This document shows positions 34,344 through 47,858 of a stretch of DNA of 64,000 nucleotides, one piece after another (within the stretch, counting starts at the first letter, position 1; every line of letters begins with the position of its first letter). The notes under the pieces were generated by a model that had not been told where the DNA came from, searched no databases, and was given only the letters and a program-made list of their open reading frames with translations. Source of the stretch: a virus (lineage: Duplodnaviria; Caudoviricetes); the IMG/VR virus record IMGVR_UViG_3300049298_000033, positions 30,539-94,538 of that record; one strand, written 5' to 3'. A program made the translations under genes and the position numbers.

Positions 34344-34678
34344 GACTCGCTCCGTTCCCGAGAGGGAGGCATGGGAATCGCCCGCTTAATCCACCCCTGC
34401 GGTTCACTGTCATCGGATCCGTCCCAAGCGATCGCTTCGCCGACCGCCCGCAGGAACGAGTGCATGTCCGTGCCCTCATAGCACCAGCCACGATCCATCG
34501 ACAGGTGAACGCCGTCGGCACTGCGCTCATCGGTGCGAACTACCCTCCAGTTGAAGATCATGCGCAGCACATCCACGCACTTGCCGCTGGGGAGTTCCTT
34601 GACGTGGTATCCGCCCTCGACGGGCTCAAGGGCGGCGCCGTATTGGTTGGTAGCGATGGTCTGCAGGAAGTCGGTCAC
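34340..34678 (-). CDS. Hypothetical protein
   Basis: Coupled to recombinase stop. Confidence 0.65.
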   Translation of the reverse strand: MTDFLQTIATNQYGAALEPVEGGYHVKELPSGKCVDVLRMIFNWRVVRTDERSADGVHLSMDRGWCYEGTDMHSFLRAVGEAIAWDGSDDSEPQGWIKRAIPMPPSRERSES

Positions 34679-35688
34679 GTGTCCATCCTGTCTTGGGGGA
34701 GAGGCTTAGCGTCACGCAGAGACTCCAGAGAAGGCAACGACAGCTTGTCCGCGGCAGCACGGGCAGCCCGCGCGGGGCGCCGGTCATAAGCCGCTGTGGT
34801 CGTCGCCGATGCGTGGCCGAGGAGCCGCTGAGCGGTCGCCAGGTCGACGCCAGCGTCGAGCAGGTCCCCGGTGTGTGTGCGCCGGAAGTCGTGGGTCGCG
34901 AGCGGCGGCAGACCAGCTTTGCGGCAGACGCGGGCGACGATGTAGCCGATCGCGCGGGGCGTCATCTGCTCGTCCTGGATCTTCCCCGTCTTATGGATCG
35001 GGCGGAACATCGGGCCGCGGCGGCTGCCGAGCAGTCTCAACCACTGGTCGAGGATCGGGACGGCGGTCGGGTTGATGTAGACCTCGCGTTCCTTGTTGCG
35101 CTTCCCGATGATGCGGAGGGTGCGTTCGCCTGCGTCGTAGCGCTCGAGGAGCGCGCCGGCGGCTTCGGCGCGCCGCATTCCGGTGCAGTACAGGACAGCG
35201 ATCAGAGCGGCGTCGCGTGCCGCTGCAGGGCCGTCCTGCTCAGCGCAGATCTTGAGCATGGCAGTGAGCTCGTCGGTGTGAATGTTCCGGCCGGCGGGCA
35301 GCCGCTGTACCGGGAGGCTCTTCACGTCGGCGGCCCGCTCGTATTCCTCGGCGGTCATGAGTCCCATTCGCCAGCAGGTGCGGAGGACCTGACGCATGGC
35401 GATGAGGTGCTTGTTGACGTGGCTGGGGGAGTGGCCTTCGGCGATGAGCGCTGAGCGGATCTGGTTGGTGTGCTCGTAGCGGAGCAGCCACCACGGTTGC
35501 CACGCGCCGGTCGCGTCGTCGTTGCCGGTCTGCATGCGGGCGATCTTGTCGAGGGCGCCGCGCATGGTCCGCTTCGACTCCGGCGACGTCAGCGAGTCAA
35601 GGTACACCTGGTACGGGTCATGGGTGGGGCGCCGCTCGACAGGGAGGGCGGGGAACGGGGAAGTAGAGGCCGGTTCGAGCGCTGTCAT
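34675..35688 (-). CDS. Tyrosine recombinase (XerC/D-, Cre-like)
   Basis: TGMRRAE, GKRNKER, HDFRRT, LGHA, TAAY catalytic residues. Confidence 0.95.
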   Translation of the reverse strand: MTALEPASTSPFPALPVERRPTHDPYQVYLDSLTSPESKRTMRGALDKIARMQTGNDDATGAWQPWWLLRYEHTNQIRSALIAEGHSPSHVNKHLIAMRQVLRTCWRMGLMTAEEYERAADVKSLPVQRLPAGRNIHTDELTAMLKICAEQDGPAAARDAALIAVLYCTGMRRAEAAGALLERYDAGERTLRIIGKRNKEREVYINPTAVPILDQWLRLLGSRRGPMFRPIHKTGKIQDEQMTPRAIGYIVARVCRKAGLPPLATHDFRRTHTGDLLDAGVDLATAQRLLGHASATTTAAYDRRPARAARAAADKLSLPSLESLRDAKPLPQDRMDT

Positions 35689-38703: not shown

Positions 38704-38915
38704 TGGTCTCCTCCGAACGTCTCGGTTGCTGCGGTCTATGGGTCGGTACGGGCGGTCTCAGCCGGTAGCTCCTGTTCGAACCGTGCTGGATATCGGGCGC
38801 GCCGGCCGAGAGGCCCGACCGGGATGCCACCGGCGGCCAGAGACGGCGTGTCTCTCGGCGGCCCGGCCGCAGAACGAGCAGGAGCCCTGGATCATCACGG
38901 CGTCACGGACGCTGC

Positions 38916-39092
38916 TCACTGTGGGCGCTCCTGAGCCTCTCCAGCCCCATCGGTGAGCTGGTCTCGTGCGCCGTGCGCGACATGGGAGATGGCATCCAGG
39001 ACAGGGCCGGGCTGACCGGTCAGGGTGATCTCGGCGTTGAGGGTGTCTCCGCCGTCCGCTGTGACGATCTTGAGTGTGGCTGTGACGTTCAC
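38916..39092 (-). CDS. 58-aa hypothetical
   Basis: GTGA overlaps at both ends. Confidence 0.5.
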   Translation of the reverse strand: MNVTATLKIVTADGGDTLNAEITLTGQPGPVLDAISHVAHGARDQLTDGAGEAQERPQ

Positions 39093-39367
39093 TCTCTGGA
39101 CTCCTGTGCCTCTCCCGTACCGTCGTGCGCCTCAGCCCCTGGGGTTGAGGATGAGGGAGTCGCAGCGGTGCTGTGAACGCCGCGCATTAGCCGTGCTACG
39201 TCCTCATCGTCAGTGAGGTCATGTAGAGCCTCAGTGATCTGTGGGTGCTCCAGGTCGCGGGTCGCGAGGACGCGGGCGGCGGTGATGATTCCGTCGATCA
39301 GCCCGATCGTGACACCCTCAGGGCTACGGCAGTCGACCGTCAGGTCTTCGGTAGTGGTCTCACTCAC
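39089..39367 (-). CDS. Hypothetical protein
   Basis: Overlaps upstream stop. Confidence 0.6.
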   Translation of the reverse strand: MSETTTEDLTVDCRSPEGVTIGLIDGIITAARVLATRDLEHPQITEALHDLTDDEDVARLMRGVHSTAATPSSSTPGAEAHDGTGEAQESRE

Positions 39368-39929
39368 CGGGCTTCGCCTCCTCGGCGTCTCCGGGGGTCT
39401 GGGCGGCGAGGTGCTCGGCCATGACCTTGATGTGCCGGGCATCAGCGAGAGCGTTGTGGACACCGGATTCCTGCTCGGGCAGACGCGGCTCGCCGAGGCG
39501 CAGGTGCTCCTGCTTCAGGTCGTTGGTCCACATGGGGATGCCGGTCGGCAGGTCGATCATCCGGCCGAAGAGCTGCGCGAGGCACACGTGGTCGTAGGCG
39601 GAGTACCAGCCCCACAGTTCGACGTTCGGGGTGTTGACGATGAACCGCTGGACCTCGTCGCGGATCTGCTTGGTCGGTTTGATGTCGGGGTGCTGCCAGT
39701 CGATCGCGAGCGGGTTGCCGCGGCCGGCGAACATCCGGGCATCGCCATGCAGGCGCGGTAGACCAGGGACGACGTTCTTCCTCAGCCAGTCGTGCTTGGC
39801 GATCCGCTTGGTCGGCATGTCCGCGAAGACGGCGTAGTACTCGCGGTCGTCCTCGCGCACGAGCGCCACAGAGATCGGCTCGATCGTCTCGCCATCCTCC
39901 AGGAACTCCCAGTCCGTGTAGATCTTCAT
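39360..39929 (-). CDS. DEDDh 3'-5' exoribonuclease (Rv2179c/RNase AS-like)
   Basis: DWEFLEDG, LWGWYSAYDHV, DLKQ, HNALADA. Confidence 0.9.
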   Translation of the reverse strand: MKIYTDWEFLEDGETIEPISVALVREDDREYYAVFADMPTKRIAKHDWLRKNVVPGLPRLHGDARMFAGRGNPLAIDWQHPDIKPTKQIRDEVQRFIVNTPNVELWGWYSAYDHVCLAQLFGRMIDLPTGIPMWTNDLKQEHLRLGEPRLPEQESGVHNALADARHIKVMAEHLAAQTPGDAEEAKPGE

Positions 39930-39932
39930 CGG

Positions 39933-40277
39933 TCAGTCCTCTCCGCCCGTGAGGGCGTCTCCGGGGGTATGGGCGGTTGCGGTGGTCGTCCTCAAGTGCA
40001 GAAGGTGCTGTTCGCGGAGCGGTGCGGAGTGCCAGGACGCCCACCGAGCTGGCGGTATCCAGCCACAGGCGCAGTTCAGATACCAGTAGGTGACGGCCCA
40101 TGAACCGCGACCGCGCGTACTGCTGTCCACGTTGGCCTTGTGAGCGGCGACGATGCTGGCGTGTTGCGGGCAGCCGTGCGTGTAGATGCCGTCGAACCAG
40201 CCGTCCGCGCCTTCCGGAGCCCGGATGCCGCAGTCGGAGGCGTCGCAGACCCAGTACTTGACCGTCTCAACGCTCAT
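39933..40277 (-). CDS. Hypothetical Cys/His-rich protein
   Basis: Ends ...TPGDA. Confidence 0.65.
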   Translation of the reverse strand: MSVETVKYWVCDASDCGIRAPEGADGWFDGIYTHGCPQHASIVAAHKANVDSSTRGRGSWAVTYWYLNCACGWIPPARWASWHSAPLREQHLLHLRTTTATAHTPGDALTGGED

Positions 40278-40761
40278 CGGCGTCTCCGGGGGTCTCGTGG
40301 TGACCACATCCGCAGCCGGGCGGGCACTTGCAGACCGGCCGTTCGGTGTGGATGTGGTGGTCGGGCGGCTGCCCGCAGATGCAGACGGCCACGTTGTCGA
40401 CGGCACGGCTCTGCACGAAGGGGTGACGGTCCCAAGAGCGCCCGTGACGGTCCACGTGGGTCTCGTCGGTGCCGGTGGTCTCAGGGGCGTCCTCGATCCG
40501 GACCTCAAGGCCAGCGGGACCGAACCATGCGCACGAGGTGACGCCCTGCCGGAAGTTGCGGGCCGACTCGTTCTTGGCCTTCCGCCAGTTCTGCGGCGTC
40601 CAAACCCACTGTGCGGGCCGGTCGATGTAGGGGTTACGCGACTCCGGGCCTTGGTCTCTGAGCTGTTCGACCAGACCCGCCGCGTACTCTCGGGCGTCCT
40701 CGACGGAGCCGGTGAATACTCGGAGTTCGTGAGTTCGCGAACCTACGATCACGTCAGCCAC
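40267..40761 (-). CDS. Hypothetical protein
   Basis: Ends ...ETPGDA. Confidence 0.65.
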   Translation of the reverse strand: MADVIVGSRTHELRVFTGSVEDAREYAAGLVEQLRDQGPESRNPYIDRPAQWVWTPQNWRKAKNESARNFRQGVTSCAWFGPAGLEVRIEDAPETTGTDETHVDRHGRSWDRHPFVQSRAVDNVAVCICGQPPDHHIHTERPVCKCPPGCGCGHHETPGDADER

Positions 40762-40976
40762 GGCCGGTCTCCTCGGGGGTCTCCGGGGGTCTCAGGGGCG
40801 ACGGGCGCGGGCTTCTCGATGCCGAGGATGACGCGGATCGTCTGGGCAAGGTCGGCCGCCCCGCGCGGGTCGAAGTCGAACAGCAAGCCGTTGATGTAGA
40901 TGCGGATGAAGTCGGTGTCAACGGCCCTCACGCCCCATTGGGTGGCGTTCATGGGCTCTGTCGTGTTCTCACGCAT
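40749..40976 (-). CDS. Hypothetical protein
   Basis: Ends ...APETPGD. Confidence 0.6.
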   Translation of the reverse strand: MRENTTEPMNATQWGVRAVDTDFIRIYINGLLFDFDPRGAADLAQTIRVILGIEKPAPVAPETPGDPRGDRPWLT

Positions 40977-41100
40977 CGGCGTCTCCGGGGGTACGGGCGG
41001 CGTACCAGCGGTTGAGCGGCACGCTGGCGAGGCAAATCAGCATGGTCATGAGCGCCACGGCCGCCATGAAGATCACGAGGCGCTCTCCGGGCGTCAACAC
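40969..41100 (-). CDS. Small membrane peptide
   Basis: Hydrophobic helix; ends RTPGDADA. Confidence 0.5.
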   Translation of the reverse strand: MLTPGERLVIFMAAVALMTMLICLASVPLNRWYAARTPGDADA

Positions 41101-41222
41101 GTGTACTCCCAGCCGCCGTTGTAGTCGTCCCAGACGACGTGCCAGGCGTAGACCGCCTGTCCAGCGCCGTCCGTCCTGAGCTTGCGGACGAACTGCCCGC
41201 ATGCATCGCATCGTGGGTTCAT
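41094..41222 (-). CDS. 42-aa hypothetical (CxxC)
   Basis: ATGA overlap, GGAGG RBS. Confidence 0.5.
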   Translation of the reverse strand: MNPRCDACGQFVRKLRTDGAGQAVYAWHVVWDDYNGGWEYTC

Positions 41223-42136
41223 GACCGGTCCTCCGTCTCGGCGTCTCCGGGGGTCTCAGGGGCGTCCAGGGCGCCGGGGTGGTTAGCCCAGTCACGCAGC
41301 AGGCTCGCGGCATCGCGCACACCCTGCCGGTACCAGTAGGGGCCCGACAGCAACGCACCCCCAGGCGGCAGCGCATCGAGCATGTCTGCCGCTGCATTCA
41401 GGACATCGGCGTTGGCGGCCTTGAGTGCGTCCCTCTCGCGACGGAACCGCAGCCACTCCTTCTGTGCCCCACGCAACTCCTCCAGGTCCTTCTGGAGGGT
41501 CTTCACCTCATCGACGAGCGCGTCCCGCTCGGCCACGACCGAGCAGTTGTCGTCGTTGTGGTTCAGCGCCTCGTTCAGCTCGACGTCAGCGGCGGCCAGC
41601 TCGGCTCGCAGCCGCTCCACCTCGGCCTCGGTGCGGTCGAGGTCGGCCGCCGTGGTCACGGCGTCGATGTTCGCGAGGCGCAGCTGCTCGCGCGCTTCGT
41701 CCCGCTCGGCCTCGGTGCGGACAAGCTCAGAGCTGAGGCCGCCGTAGGCGTCCTGCGTCCTGTTCAGCTCGGCTCGTAGCCGCTCCAGCTCGGCCTCAGC
41801 CCGCTCGCGTCCGGCCCAGCGCCTCTCGTGGTCGCGGCGTGAGGACAGCTGCCCCTCGGCGTACTCGGCGCGCGCACGGTCCCGGACGGCGTCCTCCCAG
41901 CGGACGGACAGGGCGACCTCGGCGAGCTGCTCGACGTAGACGGGGTCGCTGGCGAGGTCCGGCCAGGCTTTGATGATCGCGGCGGCCATCCGGGCGGGCA
42001 GGTCGCCGGGGTCGAACAGCCGGGAGAGCGCGGCCACGACGGCATTCAGGGCATTGCCGTCCACCTCACGTCCAGCAGCGCGTATGGCACGGAACAGCGT
42101 CTCGCGCAGGCCCTCGGTGGTCTCGGTCATCGGCAC
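41219..42136 (-). CDS. Coiled-coil protein
   Basis: Repeated AE(L/V)ERLRAEL, AERD(E/A) heptads. Confidence 0.75.
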   Translation of the reverse strand: MPMTETTEGLRETLFRAIRAAGREVDGNALNAVVAALSRLFDPGDLPARMAAAIIKAWPDLASDPVYVEQLAEVALSVRWEDAVRDRARAEYAEGQLSSRRDHERRWAGRERAEAELERLRAELNRTQDAYGGLSSELVRTEAERDEAREQLRLANIDAVTTAADLDRTEAEVERLRAELAAADVELNEALNHNDDNCSVVAERDALVDEVKTLQKDLEELRGAQKEWLRFRRERDALKAANADVLNAAADMLDALPPGGALLSGPYWYRQGVRDAASLLRDWANHPGALDAPETPGDAETEDRS

Positions 42137-42456
42137 TCCTCATGGATCGGGCCCTGCGGGGACCAGCGCAGCCGCCACGTGATGGCGTCGCTCAGCTCAA
42201 TCGGCGCGCCGCACTCGATGCATGCCCCGGTCCAGATGGCCCCGCCGGGAGCTTCCTCAACGGCTTTGCGGTACCGATCCAGCACGGGCGAGACCACGGC
42301 CCACACGGCAGCGAGCGCGTCATCGAGAGCCGTCCACGGGTGACGCTCGGCTGCCAGCTCGTACACACCGGCCTCGTCAGGCGGCTGTCCAGCGAACGCT
42401 CGACACGCCGACTCGGTCGCCAGCTCGCGCAGGCCCTTGGTGGTGTCGTCCGACAT
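42127..42456 (-). CDS. Hypothetical protein
   Basis: Starts MSDDTTKGLRE. Confidence 0.65.
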   Translation of the reverse strand: MSDDTTKGLRELATESACRAFAGQPPDEAGVYELAAERHPWTALDDALAAVWAVVSPVLDRYRKAVEEAPGGAIWTGACIECGAPIELSDAITWRLRWSPQGPIHEECR

Positions 42457-43505
42457 CAGCCAGCCCGCCAGACCGTCACCGGCAAGTCGCCCTCACCGAA
42501 CTTGACCTCGAAGTCGTAGTACGGGAAGTCGGACGGGTCCACGATCCGAGCCGTCTCGTGGGTGCTGTCACCTGCGATCTGCGTCAGGCCCTCGTCCACG
42601 GCCTCGGCGGGGGAGTAGCTCCAGATCTCACGCGCGTAGGCGTCGCAGGCCTTGGCGAAGACATCCCTGTCGATGTGGCCCACGGTCATGAGCAGGTCGC
42701 CGTCTTCGCCTAGCTCCCAGATGCGGACGCCGTCGTAGGTGTGAGCCCAGTCGGCCTCTTCGAGCTGCTGCGGAATTGTCGTAGTCATGATCTTTCCTAT
42801 CGGGGTGGTGTCGTCCGGCGGTGTGGCAGTCGATGCCCACCTGAAGCCGCCGCTCCCGTGATCACCGTCGTGACCAGTGAGTCGGCTGCAATACAGGCCG
42901 GTCCCGAGCGGTCCGGGCGCTTCGTCATGGCAGCGCCCAGGGGCGCGTGTGGTGTCGTCCGGCGGTGTGCGCTCCGGTGCGGGCTCGCCTGCCTTCGCGC
43001 CGCACAGATCTCCCTGATGCGCGATAACAGGCCGACGGCAGAACACACACCACGGCACAAAGCCGTCCTGGCCGGCGTTCACGGCAGCAACGAAGAGCTC
43101 GGCCAGCTCGGGCGTATCCATGACGCCCATCTGCTGGTCGGCCTTGCTCGGCTCGGTGCCGGTCTGGAAGCGGACGAGCGGCCCGAACTGACTCTCGACG
43201 TCGTTGGGGTAGCCGCGCTGGCCGTTCTCGCAGACCAGGTCCGGGTCATCGAAGTCCCCGGACTGCTCTTCCATGGCAAACCAGAGGTGACCGTCGCGGT
43301 CTCGCCATAGGTCGCCGGGCTTCGGATCGAACTCCGTGCCCTCGGTGGTGTCGTCCGGCACGTCCTCGCAGTCAGGTCCCGTGCACCGCTCGCGCGGACC
43401 CTTGTGCTGGCAGAGGTTCCCAAACGCCGGGTCCGGACCCCAATGCCAGTCGATGCCTTCACGGCTCGTCTCGGTGCCCTCGGTGGTGTCGTCCGGCATG
43501 GTCAC
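42456..43505 (-). CDS. Mosaic ORF of modules joined by PDDTT linkers (likely separate internal start at 42788)
   Basis: Four PDDTT repeats; AGGAAAG RBS before internal MTTTIP. Confidence 0.65.
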   Translation of the reverse strand: MTMPDDTTEGTETSREGIDWHWGPDPAFGNLCQHKGPRERCTGPDCEDVPDDTTEGTEFDPKPGDLWRDRDGHLWFAMEEQSGDFDDPDLVCENGQRGYPNDVESQFGPLVRFQTGTEPSKADQQMGVMDTPELAELFVAAVNAGQDGFVPWCVFCRRPVIAHQGDLCGAKAGEPAPERTPPDDTTRAPGRCHDEAPGPLGTGLYCSRLTGHDGDHGSGGFRWASTATPPDDTTPIGKIMTTTIPQQLEEADWAHTYDGVRIWELGEDGDLLMTVGHIDRDVFAKACDAYAREIWSYSPAEAVDEGLTQIAGDSTHETARIVDPSDFPYYDFEVKFGEGDLPVTVWRAG

Positions 43506-43831
43506 GCCGCCTCCATCTGGTGGGTACGGCTGGTTGGTGTGACGTACTCCGGGGCGTTAGCGAGCATCCACGCGAGACGCTCAACAGGATCGGCGATGTA
43601 ACCGACCGGATCTGAGATGTAGCCGACGTCGCTCTCGTCCAATACCTCGCGATCGAACATGCAGACGGCGTCGCGGTCAGAGTCGACGAGCCAGCCGGGC
43701 GTCTTGTCGATGAAGATCCTTATGCTGCAGCGTGGCCAGCCATAGGTGTCTACGCACCACTGGATCGTCTTGCCGCTCTGGAGTGCCTCGCGGATCCTTT
43801 GAGCTTCCTCGTTCGCTGGTCGTCTGACCAC
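43502..43831 (-). CDS. Hypothetical protein (HTH-like N-terminus)
   Basis: GGGGGA RBS. Confidence 0.55.
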   Translation of the reverse strand: MVRRPANEEAQRIREALQSGKTIQWCVDTYGWPRCSIRIFIDKTPGWLVDSDRDAVCMFDREVLDESDVGYISDPVGYIADPVERLAWMLANAPEYVTPTSRTHQMEAA

Positions 43832-43845
43832 GATCTTTCCCCCGT

Positions 43846-44157
43846 TCAGACTGAGAACCGGACTCGATCGACGATGAGGGCGTCGCCCTCTTCGTATTCG
43901 GACTGTGTGCAGATGCGGGACAAGTGGAGCCCGCACGCGAAGTCAGGTGGGAGGTGGTCCGCGTACTCCTCGTGCTGCACAGACCAAAGCGGGCGATGAG
44001 TGCAGTCGTCGTAATCGCAGTGAGTGGGGACGGGTCTCTGGCAGCGCTTGGCGCGTGAGCCCTCAACCTCATGTTCGAGTTCGGCGATGCGCTCCTTGTG
44101 CTGCCTGCACTCCACGAGAAGTCTGGACATGAGCCGTTCGTCCTGCTTGACGGTCAT
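43846..44157 (-). CDS. Hypothetical protein
   Basis: AGGAG RBS; Cys motifs. Confidence 0.6.
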   Translation of the reverse strand: MTVKQDERLMSRLLVECRQHKERIAELEHEVEGSRAKRCQRPVPTHCDYDDCTHRPLWSVQHEEYADHLPPDFACGLHLSRICTQSEYEEGDALIVDRVRFSV

Positions 44158-44195
44158 CGTGCGCTCCTGTTTCTCAGTGCGACGACTCGGAAGGG

Positions 44196-44402
44196 TCAGC
44201 CCGCCATCAGTCGCCGGGCAGCGGACCGGATAGTGGTCCAGTGCGGGCAGACCTCGGCGGCCTTCTTGATCAGGCCGGTAGACGACAGGGCCTCGGCGCG
44301 CATCTCTTCGATGAAGGTCTTGTCGACCCTCGTGACGCCGTAGTGGCGAGCGCGGACGTTGATCCAAGTGACCAGAGTCTCGGCGGCTTCGGCCTTCGTC
44401 AT
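44196..44402 (-). CDS. Small hypothetical protein
   Basis: AAAGGGG RBS; divergent from RHH gene. Confidence 0.55.
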   Translation of the reverse strand: MTKAEAAETLVTWINVRARHYGVTRVDKTFIEEMRAEALSSTGLIKKAAEVCPHWTTIRSAARRLMAG

Positions 44403-44431
44403 CGGTGCCCACAGCCCCTTTCCGGCTTGTT

Positions 44432-44549
44432 TCTGTGTACACAGATTACTCCCTACGCGGCTAGTCGGGCAAGGCTTCCGCTGATATTCTTGTGTACACA
44501 GAAACTGATCACTGACCGAAAGAGGTGGCTATGATTCCGTGGACACAGA
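44432..44549. promoter_or_regulatory. Three TGTGTACACAGA-type operators and a -10 (TATGAT) between divergent genes
   Basis: Perfect palindrome TCTGTGTACACAGA 44432-44445; copies at 44491 and 44539. Confidence 0.75.
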
Positions 44550-44569
44550 AGCAGCGACCGAGGAGCCGC

Positions 44570-44758
44570 GTGGCGCGACCGCGAACGGGCGAGACACCGA
44601 TCCGACATGTGCGCATCTCTGACGAGCTGTGGGGCAAGATCGAGCGCCTCGCCAACGAAGAAGGCCGCACCAAGACCGATGTGGTCGTTGAGGCGCTGAC
44701 GCGTCACGTGGCCCGTGTCCGCCGACAGCAGCAGCGAGCCAAGCGCGATGACGGCTGA
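44570..44758 (+). CDS. Ribbon-helix-helix (Arc/CopG-like) regulator
   Basis: RPRTGETPIRHVRISDELW...TKTDVVVEAL; GAGGAG RBS. Confidence 0.85.
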   Translation: MARPRTGETPIRHVRISDELWGKIERLANEEGRTKTDVVVEALTRHVARVRRQQQRAKRDDG

Positions 44759-44816
44759 CCTTCACTGACGCTCGTCCTCGGTGGTGTCGTCCGGCGGTGT
44801 GCGCTCCGGTGCGGGC

Positions 44817-45020
44817 TCAGGCATCGAACACCTCGGCATTGATCTCACGAGCACACCCCAGGACACGGGTGATCGGATAGCCGGACGGCGGCGTACCGAC
44901 AGCACCTTCGAGGTGCTCCGCAGCGGACAGCAGGGCAGCGGCAGCGGCACGTAGATCGTCGGATGGCCTGCGCTCGGGTGTGGTGGGGTCAGGCATCGTT
45001 GGTCCTTCCGGGTGGGTCAT
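44817..45020 (-). CDS. Small hypothetical protein
   Basis: ATGA overlap. Confidence 0.5.
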   Translation of the reverse strand: MTHPEGPTMPDPTTPERRPSDDLRAAAAALLSAAEHLEGAVGTPPSGYPITRVLGCAREINAEVFDA

Positions 45021-45223
45021 TTCGGGTCGGTATTCAGCCCTGCACGCCTCAGCTTGCCGATCACATTCGCGACCGACCTGCGGTCAGACGGCGTCGACGG
45101 GCAAAACACGGTTCGCCCATTCGGGGGCTTCCATGCGAGGTGACCGTTGCGGGTTTGTTCGATCACCCACCCGGCCTTACGTGCCTGGTCGGCAGTGCGA
45201 CGTAAATCTCGGGGGATCTTCAA
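45017..45223 (-). CDS. HicA-like toxin/mRNA interferase
   Basis: AGWVIEQTRNGHL..PNG...TPSD.R...LRRAG. Confidence 0.7.
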   Translation of the reverse strand: MKIPRDLRRTADQARKAGWVIEQTRNGHLAWKPPNGRTVFCPSTPSDRRSVANVIGKLRRAGLNTDPK

Positions 45224-45400
45224 ATCGCCTCGATCGGGTGGGGAGTCTATCTATTCAAAGCTGCTTCTATTTTAGCTTATTGGCGCAAATCGAACGGCTT
45301 GTTCGACGTGCTCTAAGGAATGGTTTCTGTCGGCAGAACTCGATTATTGAGGGGTCCTGCGAGGCGTACCGACACGGGGCCGGTACGCCAGGACGGATCG

Positions 45401-46552: not shown

Positions 46553-46745
46553 GGCTAGTCAGTTCCTTCTGGTTGATTGGGCTGGTCAGTGCTTCGCATC
46601 GAGGACGGCGTGGACGACGGGAAGCGCGGCCTCGATCGCGACCTGGTCGTCACGTGGTGGTGGATGACCTCTGCGTGGACGCCAAGAAGGTTCGCGAGGC
46701 CATGTAGCGGCCATGGACGGTGACCCAGTAGGTGTTGGCCACAGC

Positions 46746-47051
46746 TCAGCCCTCGTCCATCAGGCTGCAGTAGACCCAGTTCAGGCTGTCCCAGATCTGG
46801 TGACCGCCCTGCTCATGGCGCGGGTCGAGACCATTCATGGACCCACACTCGCGATACAGCGTCATCGCGTCCTTGACGGGCAAGACGACGGTCATCTCGG
46901 TGTCGCAGCGGGCCGTGTTGACGGTGTTGACGTCCTCGATGATTCCGGCGATGACTCCGAAGGCGTCGTCGCGGACGACCGCAGTGAGCTCGGTGACTTC
47001 CTCGTCATCGTCGAAGCGGATGTTGGTGATGCGGAACTGGAGCTTGGCCAT
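46746..47051 (-). CDS. Hypothetical protein
   Basis: GGAGG RBS. Confidence 0.65.
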   Translation of the reverse strand: MAKLQFRITNIRFDDDEEVTELTAVVRDDAFGVIAGIIEDVNTVNTARCDTEMTVVLPVKDAMTLYRECGSMNGLDPRHEQGGHQIWDSLNWVYCSLMDEG

Positions 47052-47054
47052 GGG

Positions 47055-47264
47055 TCAGCCCTCCGGGGTTTCGTAGAGAGGCTGGTTGTAGGCGCTGGTG
47101 ATCCGGACCCGCACGCCGGTTGCCTCGAGCTCGTCACGGCGTTGCTCGGCCTCGGTGAGGTTCGTGACGGTTTCGCTGCCGCCGGTGGTGAGGTTCCGGA
47201 CGTAGCAGTGACGGTCGAACGCGCGCGTGTAGGCGCGGTCTGTGTCGAGATGGTTGCTGTCCAC
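47055..47264 (-). CDS. Small hypothetical protein
   Basis: Junction motif. Confidence 0.55.
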   Translation of the reverse strand: MDSNHLDTDRAYTRAFDRHCYVRNLTTGGSETVTNLTEAEQRRDELEATGVRVRITSAYNQPLYETPEG

Positions 47265-47267
47265 GGC

Positions 47268-47435
47268 TCAGCGCCCCGTCCATGGCTCTGGGAGGCGGGC
47301 CTGCTTGCACAGCCCGCGGACGACCTCGGCCACCTCTGATCTGGACCAATCGACGATCGTCTGAGACCCGCCGGTGGCCGTGATCGTGACTCGTACACCG
47401 TTGCGTTCCTGCTGAATGTTGATGTTGTGTGCCAC
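47268..47435 (-). CDS. 55-aa protein, tandem paralog 2
   Basis: ...VRGLCKQARLPEPW. Confidence 0.6.
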   Translation of the reverse strand: MAHNINIQQERNGVRVTITATGGSQTIVDWSRSEVAEVVRGLCKQARLPEPWTGR

Positions 47436-47438
47436 GGC

Positions 47439-47606
47439 TCAGCCCTTCTTCCAGGGCTCAGGGAGACCCGCGACGTGGCAGAACATCCTGACGAACTGCT
47501 CGGCCGCTCGAAGGTCGAAGTCCTCAGAGACGGCGCTCTTTCGGTCATCGGAGATCAGAGTGAGCGTGGCACCGTCACGCCGGGGCTGAATGTCGAAGGA
47601 CGCCAT
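47439..47606 (-). CDS. 55-aa protein, tandem paralog 1
   Basis: ...VRMFCHVAGLPEPW. Confidence 0.6.
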   Translation of the reverse strand: MASFDIQPRRDGATLTLISDDRKSAVSEDFDLRAAEQFVRMFCHVAGLPEPWKKG

Positions 47607-47609
47607 GGC

Positions 47610-47858
47610 TCAGGCCACCTCCAGGGTGTTGGTGAGGTGGCGGCGGCCAGCCTCAGTGATCGTGTACGTCGTGTGCACCGCACCGCGGTGAGCGGACAGG
47701 AACCCGTGCTCGGTGTTCTGGTTCAGCGCGGCGCGAATGTAGGAGTCCGGGACGTCCCGCAGGACACGGCGCACATCACCGGCAGTGAGCGGAGTGTCCT
47801 TGAAGACGGCCAGCACGGCGTTGTTCAGGTCGTTCCAGGTATCACTAGTAGAAGACAC
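47610..47858 (-). CDS. Winged-helix protein
   Basis: YTITEAGRRHL wing signature. Confidence 0.65.
   Translation of the reverse strand: MSSTSDTWNDLNNAVLAVFKDTPLTAGDVRRVLRDVPDSYIRAALNQNTEHGFLSAHRGAVHTTYTITEAGRRHLTNTLEVA

Follow-up and report, generated by a model that had tools for sequence, protein, structure and literature searches.

The DNA analysed here is a stretch of 64,000 nucleotides (nt) from the provirus record IMGVR_UViG_3300049298_000033, covering bases 30539-94538 of its 94,538 bp, with a G+C content of 65.6%. This whole stretch is called the window, and positions are counted from its first letter. The genes at about 34-52 kb form one long minus-strand operon. Its leftward early part contains an array of minus-strand genes, six of which (gpC, gpE, gpF, gpG, gpH and gpI) carry the same 15-nt repeat in their last codons (Table 1). 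The repeat reads ACCCCCGGAGACGCC in gene sense and GGCGTCTCCGGGGGT on the plus strand. Five copies are exact and one has a single mismatch. An earlier reading made from the letters alone, called below the sequence-only reading, had reported the repeat in six unrelated genes, and both the coordinates and the sequence were correct. All six copies lie on one strand and are asymmetric, with the core layout ACCCCC-GGAG-ACGCC. They are translated in one shared frame, as TPGD(A/P), 2-8 codons before the stop, in agreement with the reported common ending TPGD(A), and the next start codon follows at 1-24 nt. The inter-repeat units measure 262, 202, 497, 325 and 570 nt and are all minus-strand, promoterless and in one orientation; the 262-nt unit comprises gpD and gpE together (40969..41222). 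The extension of the repeat (plus strand GGTCTCAGGGGCG, sense CGCCCCTGAGACC) does recur at 40477, 40788 and 41252 as reported, but the copy at 40477 is internal to a gene and is not a gene end. No further copy was found at up to 2 mismatches anywhere in the whole record, so that all copies fall within 1.9 kb; against the six copies, 0.74 matches are expected by chance at this threshold. The exact 15-mer occurs once in five related actinomycete genomes (10-14 Mb each, 61 Mb in total).

The identity of the copies extends to silent positions. As already noticed from the letters, the codon third positions are the same in every copy, including that of the rare glycine codon GGA (9% of Gly codons). 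Given the codon use of the genome itself, the probability that TPGDA is spelled in this way by chance is p = 0.0037 per copy. Therefore the repeat is conserved at the DNA level and not merely as a peptide. Similarity among the six proteins is restricted to a tail of 6-9 residues. The possibility that the six genes are paralogues was rejected, as this tail is the sole similarity between them. Only gpI has a family match, which ends at residue 176, before the tail; the TPGD tail is therefore an addition to the family.

The hexamer CGTCTC lies within every exact copy, and four copies run on into GGTCTC (39384-41257, plus strand). Both are recognition sequences of type IIS restriction enzymes; they have no known significance here and matter only for cloning. 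A synthetic origin was considered on account of these sites and rejected, as the same joints are present in independent metagenomic contigs.

Table 1. Features of the array and its surroundings. C-terminal sequences are written up to the stop codon. SD, Shine-Dalgarno sequence; aa, amino acids; G001, related 105-kb phage; L015, related 52-kb contig; P numbers, metagenomic protein homologues.
Feature	Position	Strand	Codons from motif to stop	Nt from motif to next start	Description
gpC	41219..42136	-			305 aa, coiled-coil; only cassette with homologues in G001; family highly mosaic
Copy 6	41240..41254	-	6	17	gpC tail (..ALDAPETPGDAETEDRS), before gpD start; second SD, GGAGGA, between
gpD	41094-41222	-			42 aa, CxxC; inside the array yet without a motif copy
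gpE	40969-41100	-			43 aa, hydrophobic membrane protein
Copy 5	40978..40992	-	2	1	gpE tail (..AARTPGDADA); GGAG 6 nt before gpF ATG, sole SD there
gpF	40749..40976	-			75 aa
Copy 4	40776..40790	-	8	14	ACCCCCGGAGACCCC, one mismatch; gpF tail (..APETPGDPRGDRPWLT), before gpG GTG; second SD, GGAGAC, after it
gpG	40267..40761	-			164 aa, two modules, each found alone or in other fusions
Decayed internal copy in gpG	40460..40492	-			..EDAPETTGTDET.., residues 91-101; joins the two gpG modules
Copy 3	40279..40293	-	3	1	gpG tail (..HHETPGDADER); GGAG 6 nt before gpH ATG, sole SD
gpH	39933..40277	-			114 aa, Cys-rich; start confirmed by P0039, 70% identical, which has another tail (..GGAGEAQEG)
Copy 2	39954..39968	-	6	24	gpH tail (..HTPGDALTGGED), before gpI ATG
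Second joint element	39933..39959	-			..LTGGED with SD GGAGAGGA, directly after copy 2
gpI	39360..39929	-			Rv2179c-like 3'-5' exoribonuclease / PHROG 2259
Copy 1	39384..39398	-	7	16	gpI tail (..QTPGDAEEAKPGE), before gpJ GTG; next 10 nt are those after the L015 joint
gpJ, gpK	38916-39367	-			end in another common tail (..DGTGEAQESRE, ..DGAGEAQERPQ)
Tyrosine recombinase	34675-35688	-			distal end of the operon
Island, gpC joint	41237-41273				37 nt, one mismatch (97%) with G001
Island, gpH ..TGGED tail	39933-39959				27 nt, 96%, with G001
Island, PDDTT joint	42949-42986				38 nt, 95%
Island, PDDTT joint	44777-44826				50 nt, 94%
Island inside gpC	41983-42010				the one island away from a gene joint
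Sister PDDTT family	42101-44826	-			repeat CCGGACGACACCACC
Longer PDDTT form	42949-42986; 44781-44818				EPAPERTPPDDTT, 38 nt at the first position
Mini-open reading frame	44762-44824	-			20 codons, MPEPAPERTPPDDTTEDERQ
Third boundary repeat	46733-47446	-			sense ..GGGCTGAGCC(G/A)TGG..
Five small genes	46746-47858				third boundary repeat between them
Direct repeats in gpC	41597-41816				three, in the coiled-coil part

Comparison at the DNA level was possible with the relatives whose DNA could be retrieved: the 105-kb IMG/VR phage G001 (loci L011, L014, L019 and L020), the 52-kb contig L015, and the small fragments L012 and L016. G001 was found by an alignment search in IMG/VR, whereas single-protein scans with gpG, gpC and gpF found nothing; L015 and L016 were retrieved with the DNA motif itself. 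G001 and the window have in common the genes o47610 (60% amino acid identity) and o37285 (82%) and the recombinase (27%). Between o47610 and o37285 lie about 9.8 kb in the window and 5.3 kb in G001, and a gpC-like gene is the only gene that both intervals contain. The array therefore sits in a hyperplastic stretch of the leftward early operon of this pZL12-like soil-actinomycete provirus. Short-word blastn of positions 34-49 kb against G001, L015, L012 and L016 recovered two conserved genes. The other significant matches were short islands of 27-50 nt in unalignable surroundings, all but one at gene joints. One match, at a TPGDA joint, links the end of gpC to the gpC-like gene of G001, over 37 nt with one mismatch, although the two proteins are only about 37% identical; synonymous sites are thus not free to vary. 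Another island is common to the gpH tail ..TGGED and the end of this G001 gene, and two more are joints of a sister repeat family described below.

The flanks of the core form a patchwork. Copies 6 and 4, the decayed copy inside gpG and the G001 copy have a common upstream flank (10-19 nt) and different downstream flanks. Copies 5 and 3 have a common downstream G-ATG and different upstream flanks. The L015 joint combines the 9-nt upstream flank of copy 5, the core, and the 10-nt downstream flank of copy 1; in all, 26 nt of the copy 5 joint are identical to it. Such a patchwork is the product expected of crossovers inside a shared core. The second joint element matches the end of the G001 gpC-like gene at 26 of 27 nt and L015 at 30 of 33 nt. 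The TPGDA core and the TGGED tail are adjacent here and about 22 codons apart in G001. Tails of the ..TGGED or ..KGGED type also occur in P0011, P0021 and P0046. The common tail of gpJ and gpK belongs to another family, ..EAQEG, which is found on unrelated proteins of relatives (P0020, P0039, L011:10926-11237).

In L015, the apparent coding frame changes twice within 400 nt (L015:3750-4160), and the gene upstream runs into the TPGDA core in a different frame, with no stop nearby. Either indel errors in the metagenomic contig or a real frameshifted joint would account for this.

Protein searches revealed a very mosaic set of families in soil metagenomes. The two modules of gpG are matched separately: matches to the first end at residues 92-99 and matches to the second start at residues 86-94. 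Between them sits the decayed joint ..DAPETTGTDET.., which is 85% identical to copy 6 over 33 nt and has lost the GGAG. In the AlphaFold model of gpG, the confident N-terminal domain ends at residue 91 and is followed by a linker and tail of low confidence (predicted local distance difference test of about 55 in the tail). The motif is thus predicted to encode a disordered acidic Thr-Pro-Gly-Asp linker and not a fold, in keeping with the reading preferred below. In P0020-P0024, the body of gpG module 1 is kept and the tail diverges. The same is observed for gpH and its 70%-identical homologue P0039, while all six homologues of gpF (P0041-P0046) diverge just after ..RVILGIE(K/T)P, and gpI homologues in other prophages have no tail. 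The sequence ..ALDAPETPGDA.. is attached to at least seven unrelated bodies, and the distal tails that come after it are of at least four kinds. At the protein level, modules flanked by two motif copies are found in P0005, P0012, P0030 and P0042, and in P0015 and G001 the joint is read through in frame into another module. Homology breakpoints thus fall at the repeats, where the homologues of gpF, gpG, gpH and gpC diverge exactly at the beginning of the tail, as the sequence-only reading would have it. Of the two outcomes that would have refuted that reading, breakpoints away from the repeats and free synonymous variation, neither was observed. In an all-against-all BLAST, 48 of 471 internal end points of high-scoring segment pairs lay within 8 residues of TPGD, PETP, APET or DDTT, compared to 19.5 +/- 4.4 expected, the end points in this count not being mutually independent. 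The other two frames of the repeat (PPETP and PRRR) never occur in the homologue set, except for one PRRR in P0035, an unrelated weak match of 5,020 residues.

The reading that we prefer, and to which we attach about an even chance, is that the repeat is a short conserved in-frame boundary sequence, serving as a short-homology joint for the shuffling of modules and also carrying a ribosome-binding site. The 15-nt repeat would be the core of a boundary, or linker, sequence at the 3' ends of small early genes. Its importance would be mainly evolutionary. The patch of DNA identity that it provides is common to unrelated cassettes and to different phages of the group, and general or short-homology recombination would repeatedly have joined modules there. 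As the frame of the patch never changes, a crossover within it would leave the upstream protein intact and give it a harmless acidic tail and a stop; where the patch has no stop, two modules would be fused in frame. The fixed frame would then follow from viability, the alternative frames being harmful: in copies 3 and 5, the two that were checked, one alternative frame enters the next gene and the other yields a poly-Arg tail. The six-copy array itself may have been built by recombination at the patch, through Campbell-type insertion and excision of cassettes or through unequal crossing-over, by a presumed enzyme. This retains the part of the sequence-only reading in which modules are joined at recombinogenic repeats, but neither its analogy to integrons nor its candidate catalyst, the tyrosine recombinase.

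Among known systems, the boundary sequences of the modular theory of phage evolution (summarised in PMC3029335), postulated but rarely seen, are those that the array best fits. Islands of DNA identity occur at the module junctions of dissimilar genomes, and flanks, bodies and tails assort independently. Unlike the postulated sequences, those of the window are repeated six times in one genome, are translated in a fixed frame, and join domains as well as genes. The closest system in logic is that of the promoter-early stem-loop (PeSL) cassettes of T4-type phages (Arbiol et al. 2010, PMC2839356; also PMC4122927), in which a repeated element combines an expression function with homology for exchange. 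In both systems a repeated motif with its own expression function flanks small orphan genes in a hyperplastic region, and differences in gene content are bounded by the motif, although in our case the evidence is at the protein level and, for DNA, comes from one relative only. The mechanism proposed for PeSLs is likewise homologous exchange between neighbouring copies, with excision and insertion. However, PeSLs measure about 100 bp and are intergenic, with a strong early promoter and a terminator hairpin, whereas the element of the window has 15-37 nt of coding sequence in a fixed frame and an SD, and neither promoter nor hairpin. Unlike PeSLs, the element also allows modules to be fused into one protein. 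Excised mini-circles have been demonstrated for PeSLs, whereas the shuffling proposed here rests on sequence comparison.

The origin of phage mosaicism, by homologous exchange at boundary sequences or by random illegitimate joining followed by selection, is a long-standing question, and boundary sequences are usually absent from mosaic junctions (PMC3029335). The locus is an unusually clean case in which they are present: a patch of 15-50 nt turns up repeatedly where genes or domains meet, both inside a single genome and among distant relatives, and its neighbours vary freely. A coding patch in a fixed frame would explain how small phage genes can be fused or split without harm. It also carries a warning for annotation, as C-terminal tails and N-terminal leaders in these operons may be junction DNA and not functional protein.

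Several points weigh against this reading. Recombination at the patch is deduced from comparison, with no event observed. Only two or three relatives yielded DNA, and one of them, L015, has inconsistent reading frames; moreover, L015 and L016 are biased towards DNA conservation because they were found with the motif itself. G001 and L015 carry one copy each. An array of six copies is thus particular to this provirus, and something more, such as circle insertion or unequal exchange, would be needed for it to grow. A length of 15-37 nt is short for efficient homologous recombination, and the RecT and ERF families, the only recombinase families searched for in this respect, were not found in the provirus record. 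Only about 10% of the internal homology end points lie at these motifs and about 90% elsewhere. Many joints of relatives (e.g. P0043-P0045) carry no such sequence, which indicates that illegitimate recombination is also at work. Finally, the sharp edges of the 15-nt core would equally fit a binding site or a translation-initiation element.

More distant relatives contribute little to this question. The ten prophage loci retrieved with gpI (L001-L010, from Nonomuraea, Actinomadura, Streptomyces and others; 48-62% identity) contain neither the motif nor a comparable junction repeat, and are too distant to inform on breakpoints. A relative of gpC or gpG was found in 1 of 401 genomes of the family and in none of 104 of the genus Actinomadura, and this sole match (G363) has no motif. 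Searches of IMG/VR with degenerate back-translated ALDAPETP and PE.PGDAE patterns returned chance matches and G001 only.

A translational role of the motif is real for at least two copies, since in copies 5 and 3 its GGAG is the only SD of the downstream gene. In the other four joints a second SD follows, nearer to the next start. Within the core, only GGAG matches the anti-SD. Homologues of gpI in unrelated prophages end in ..GDA with GGGGACGCCTGATG, so that GGNGACGCC is commonly placed ahead of a start in this group. Part of the motif is thus sequence that is ordinary for an initiation region. In 5 of the 6 joints the RNA is no more structured than shuffled sequences (fold z-scores of 0 to +0.9). 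Only the joint of copy 1 (39339-39428, minus strand) folds well, at -34 kcal/mol and z = -3.3; this structure, in which the core region is paired with the region of the gpJ start, is absent from the other joints. No inverted repeat, dyad symmetry or shared hairpin was found at the copies, no promoter- or terminator-like site at the joints, and no sigma-70-like promoter in 38800-45300. A search of 37-46 kb brought no Rfam family up to its gathering score; the one match listed, to a snoRNA, fell short of it (21.7 vs 38 bits, E = 0.022) and lies away from the joints.

The repeat could accordingly be a start-associated translation-initiation element, recognised in the mRNA by the ribosome or by a factor that tunes or couples the next cistron, with the mosaicism being incidental. 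The model for this is the start-associated sequence (SAS) of Cluster K mycobacteriophages (Pope et al. 2011, PMC3203893), whose function is itself unknown. The SAS has the consensus GGGATAGGAGCCC, occurs in 11-19 copies across the non-structural half of the genome, and is found at the same gene families in relatives. Like the SAS, our repeat is short and asymmetric, has a GGAG core between conserved flanks unable to pair with the anti-SD (PMC3203893), lies in one orientation near starts in a non-structural early operon, and may overlap the end of the upstream gene. The sole SDs of copies 5 and 3, stop/start overlaps typical of coupling, the frequency of GGNGACGCC before starts in prophages of this group, and the unstructured junction RNAs, as expected of open initiation regions, all agree with it. 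However, the sequence differs, and six clustered copies confined to 1.9 kb, with none in the other 90-odd kb, contrast with the dispersed copies of the SAS. The SAS keeps a distance of 3-7 bp to the start, whereas two of our copies lie 1 nt from an ATG and the other four lie 14-24 nt from the start and are followed by another, better placed SD. In G001 the motif is not conserved at the corresponding genes, and several genes there are without it; the peptide that it encodes also lies inside fused proteins of relatives (P0015 and P0042). The G001 core stands 25 codons ahead of the stop and no start is near it, and ribosome binding cannot be the reason why it is conserved in that phage. The longest complementarity of the 36-nt joint to the 16S rRNA of a related genome, for which the available locus has no 3' end, was 8 nt, which is the chance level. 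Taken as the whole explanation, an initiation element is rather unlikely.

A bolder form of the preferred reading is a system akin to exon shuffling, with a set of in-frame joints (TPGDA at module ends, PDDTT at module starts, and TGGED and EAQEG tails), excision and re-insertion of circles, and modules used as separate cistrons or as fusions. Its rate would be well above that of illegitimate recombination, and it would perhaps have a dedicated enzyme, the Xer-like or an unrecognised recombinase of the operon. If so, the early accessory gene set would be a combinatorial library. We hold this for a speculative proposal that is probably wrong in this strong form.

Alternatively, the tail could be a functional C-terminal or interdomain peptide, such as a linker, a protease site, a docking motif or a degron (..ALDAPETPGDAE..), the DNA identity reflecting recent common descent. 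The frame is indeed the same in the six copies and in every occurrence among the homologues, and the peptide is widespread at the ends of unrelated metagenomic modules and retained in fusions. However, all synonymous sites are identical among the copies and in the comparison to G001, even in rare codons (GGA and, in the extension, CCT). The distance to the C-terminus varies from 2-8 codons here to 25 in G001, with different residues following, and close homologues of gpH, gpF and gpI manage without the peptide. The uniform frame has a simpler cause in the harm done by the alternative frames. A peptide function is therefore improbable, and the C-terminal degron suggested by the sequence-only reading in particular is unlikely because the identity resides in the DNA and the distance to the C-terminus is not fixed.

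Less probable still is that the copies are sites bound by a DNA-binding protein, comparable to the Cluster A stoperators or to TraB/FtsK-type translocase repeats, and placed at gene ends where coding constraint is weakest. Stoperators (PMC3203893, PMC3029335) are also asymmetric sites of 13-15 bp at gene junctions, in one orientation to transcription, and the sharp-edged core of our repeat resembles them in these respects. However, they are dispersed over the genome, have the same sequence as the early-promoter operator and are bound by the phage repressor. The repeat cannot be counted among them, since no copy lies outside the 1.9 kb at up to 2 mismatches, whether at a promoter or elsewhere. 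Besides, its spacing of 200-570 bp tracks the gene ends exactly, no dyad symmetry is present, and G001, L015 and L016 have a single copy each, in different contexts. Binding sites would leave unexplained the uniform frame and the two-copy-flanked modules of relatives.

In integrons, attC is an imperfect inverted repeat of 57-141 bp that forms a hairpin and follows the stop codon of the cassette. In an integron-like site-specific system, the tyrosine recombinase (PF00589, E = 3.6e-25), the only one nearby, which does lie downstream on the same strand and in the same operon, at 3.7 kb, would cut and rejoin promoterless cassettes of one gene that all point the same way and have the recurring separator at their ends. 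Such a system is highly improbable, since the joints have neither an inverted-repeat core nor a shared hairpin, lie inside reading frames in a fixed frame and not after stops, are accompanied by no attI or Pc, and show a patchwork of variable identity around the core (15-37 nt) as predicted by homology-dependent exchange, while the enzyme is not of the IntI type (40.3 bits for the integron integrase TIGR02249, cut-off 265, compared to 120.7 bits for XerC, so that it is best described as a generic Xer-like enzyme) and has a homologue in G001, which has one motif copy, so that its proposed role as the catalyst is not upheld either.

Further boundary repeats occur nearby. The sister family, named after its PDDTT peptide, occupies the N-termini of gpA, gpB and gpC and also occurs within the 349-residue gpA. 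Its longer form matches G001 over 38-50 nt at 94-95%. In P0016, a TPGDA-joint tail is fused to a PDDTT leader (..AEAEERSPDDTTEG..), and because of this fusion the two families may together make up a single composite joint, each contributing one half. The ATG of the 20-codon mini-open reading frame and the stop codon of the gene at 44817-45020 overlap. The frame is made up of a joint leader with a joint-like tail immediately behind it; in G001 the same leader opens a protein of 141-165 residues. The mini-frame looks like an emptied joint after loss of its cassette.

The third boundary repeat spans stop and start codons and recurs between five small genes. Two of these encode 55-residue paralogues that end in ..LPEPWKKG and ..LPEPWTGR, and a 55-residue homologue in G001 ends in ..LPDPWKRG. 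In the coiled-coil part of gpC, three direct repeats spaced 84 nt apart are 65-83% identical (..AEVERLRAEL.. units). Finally, dense clusters of short direct repeats were seen in two related prophages (L001:5730-5963 and L007:4830-5207) and in G001 (L020:5914-6419). They consist of 11-17-mers in 4-7 copies, many of them spaced about 24-34 nt apart, and look like iterons or a partition or transfer site.

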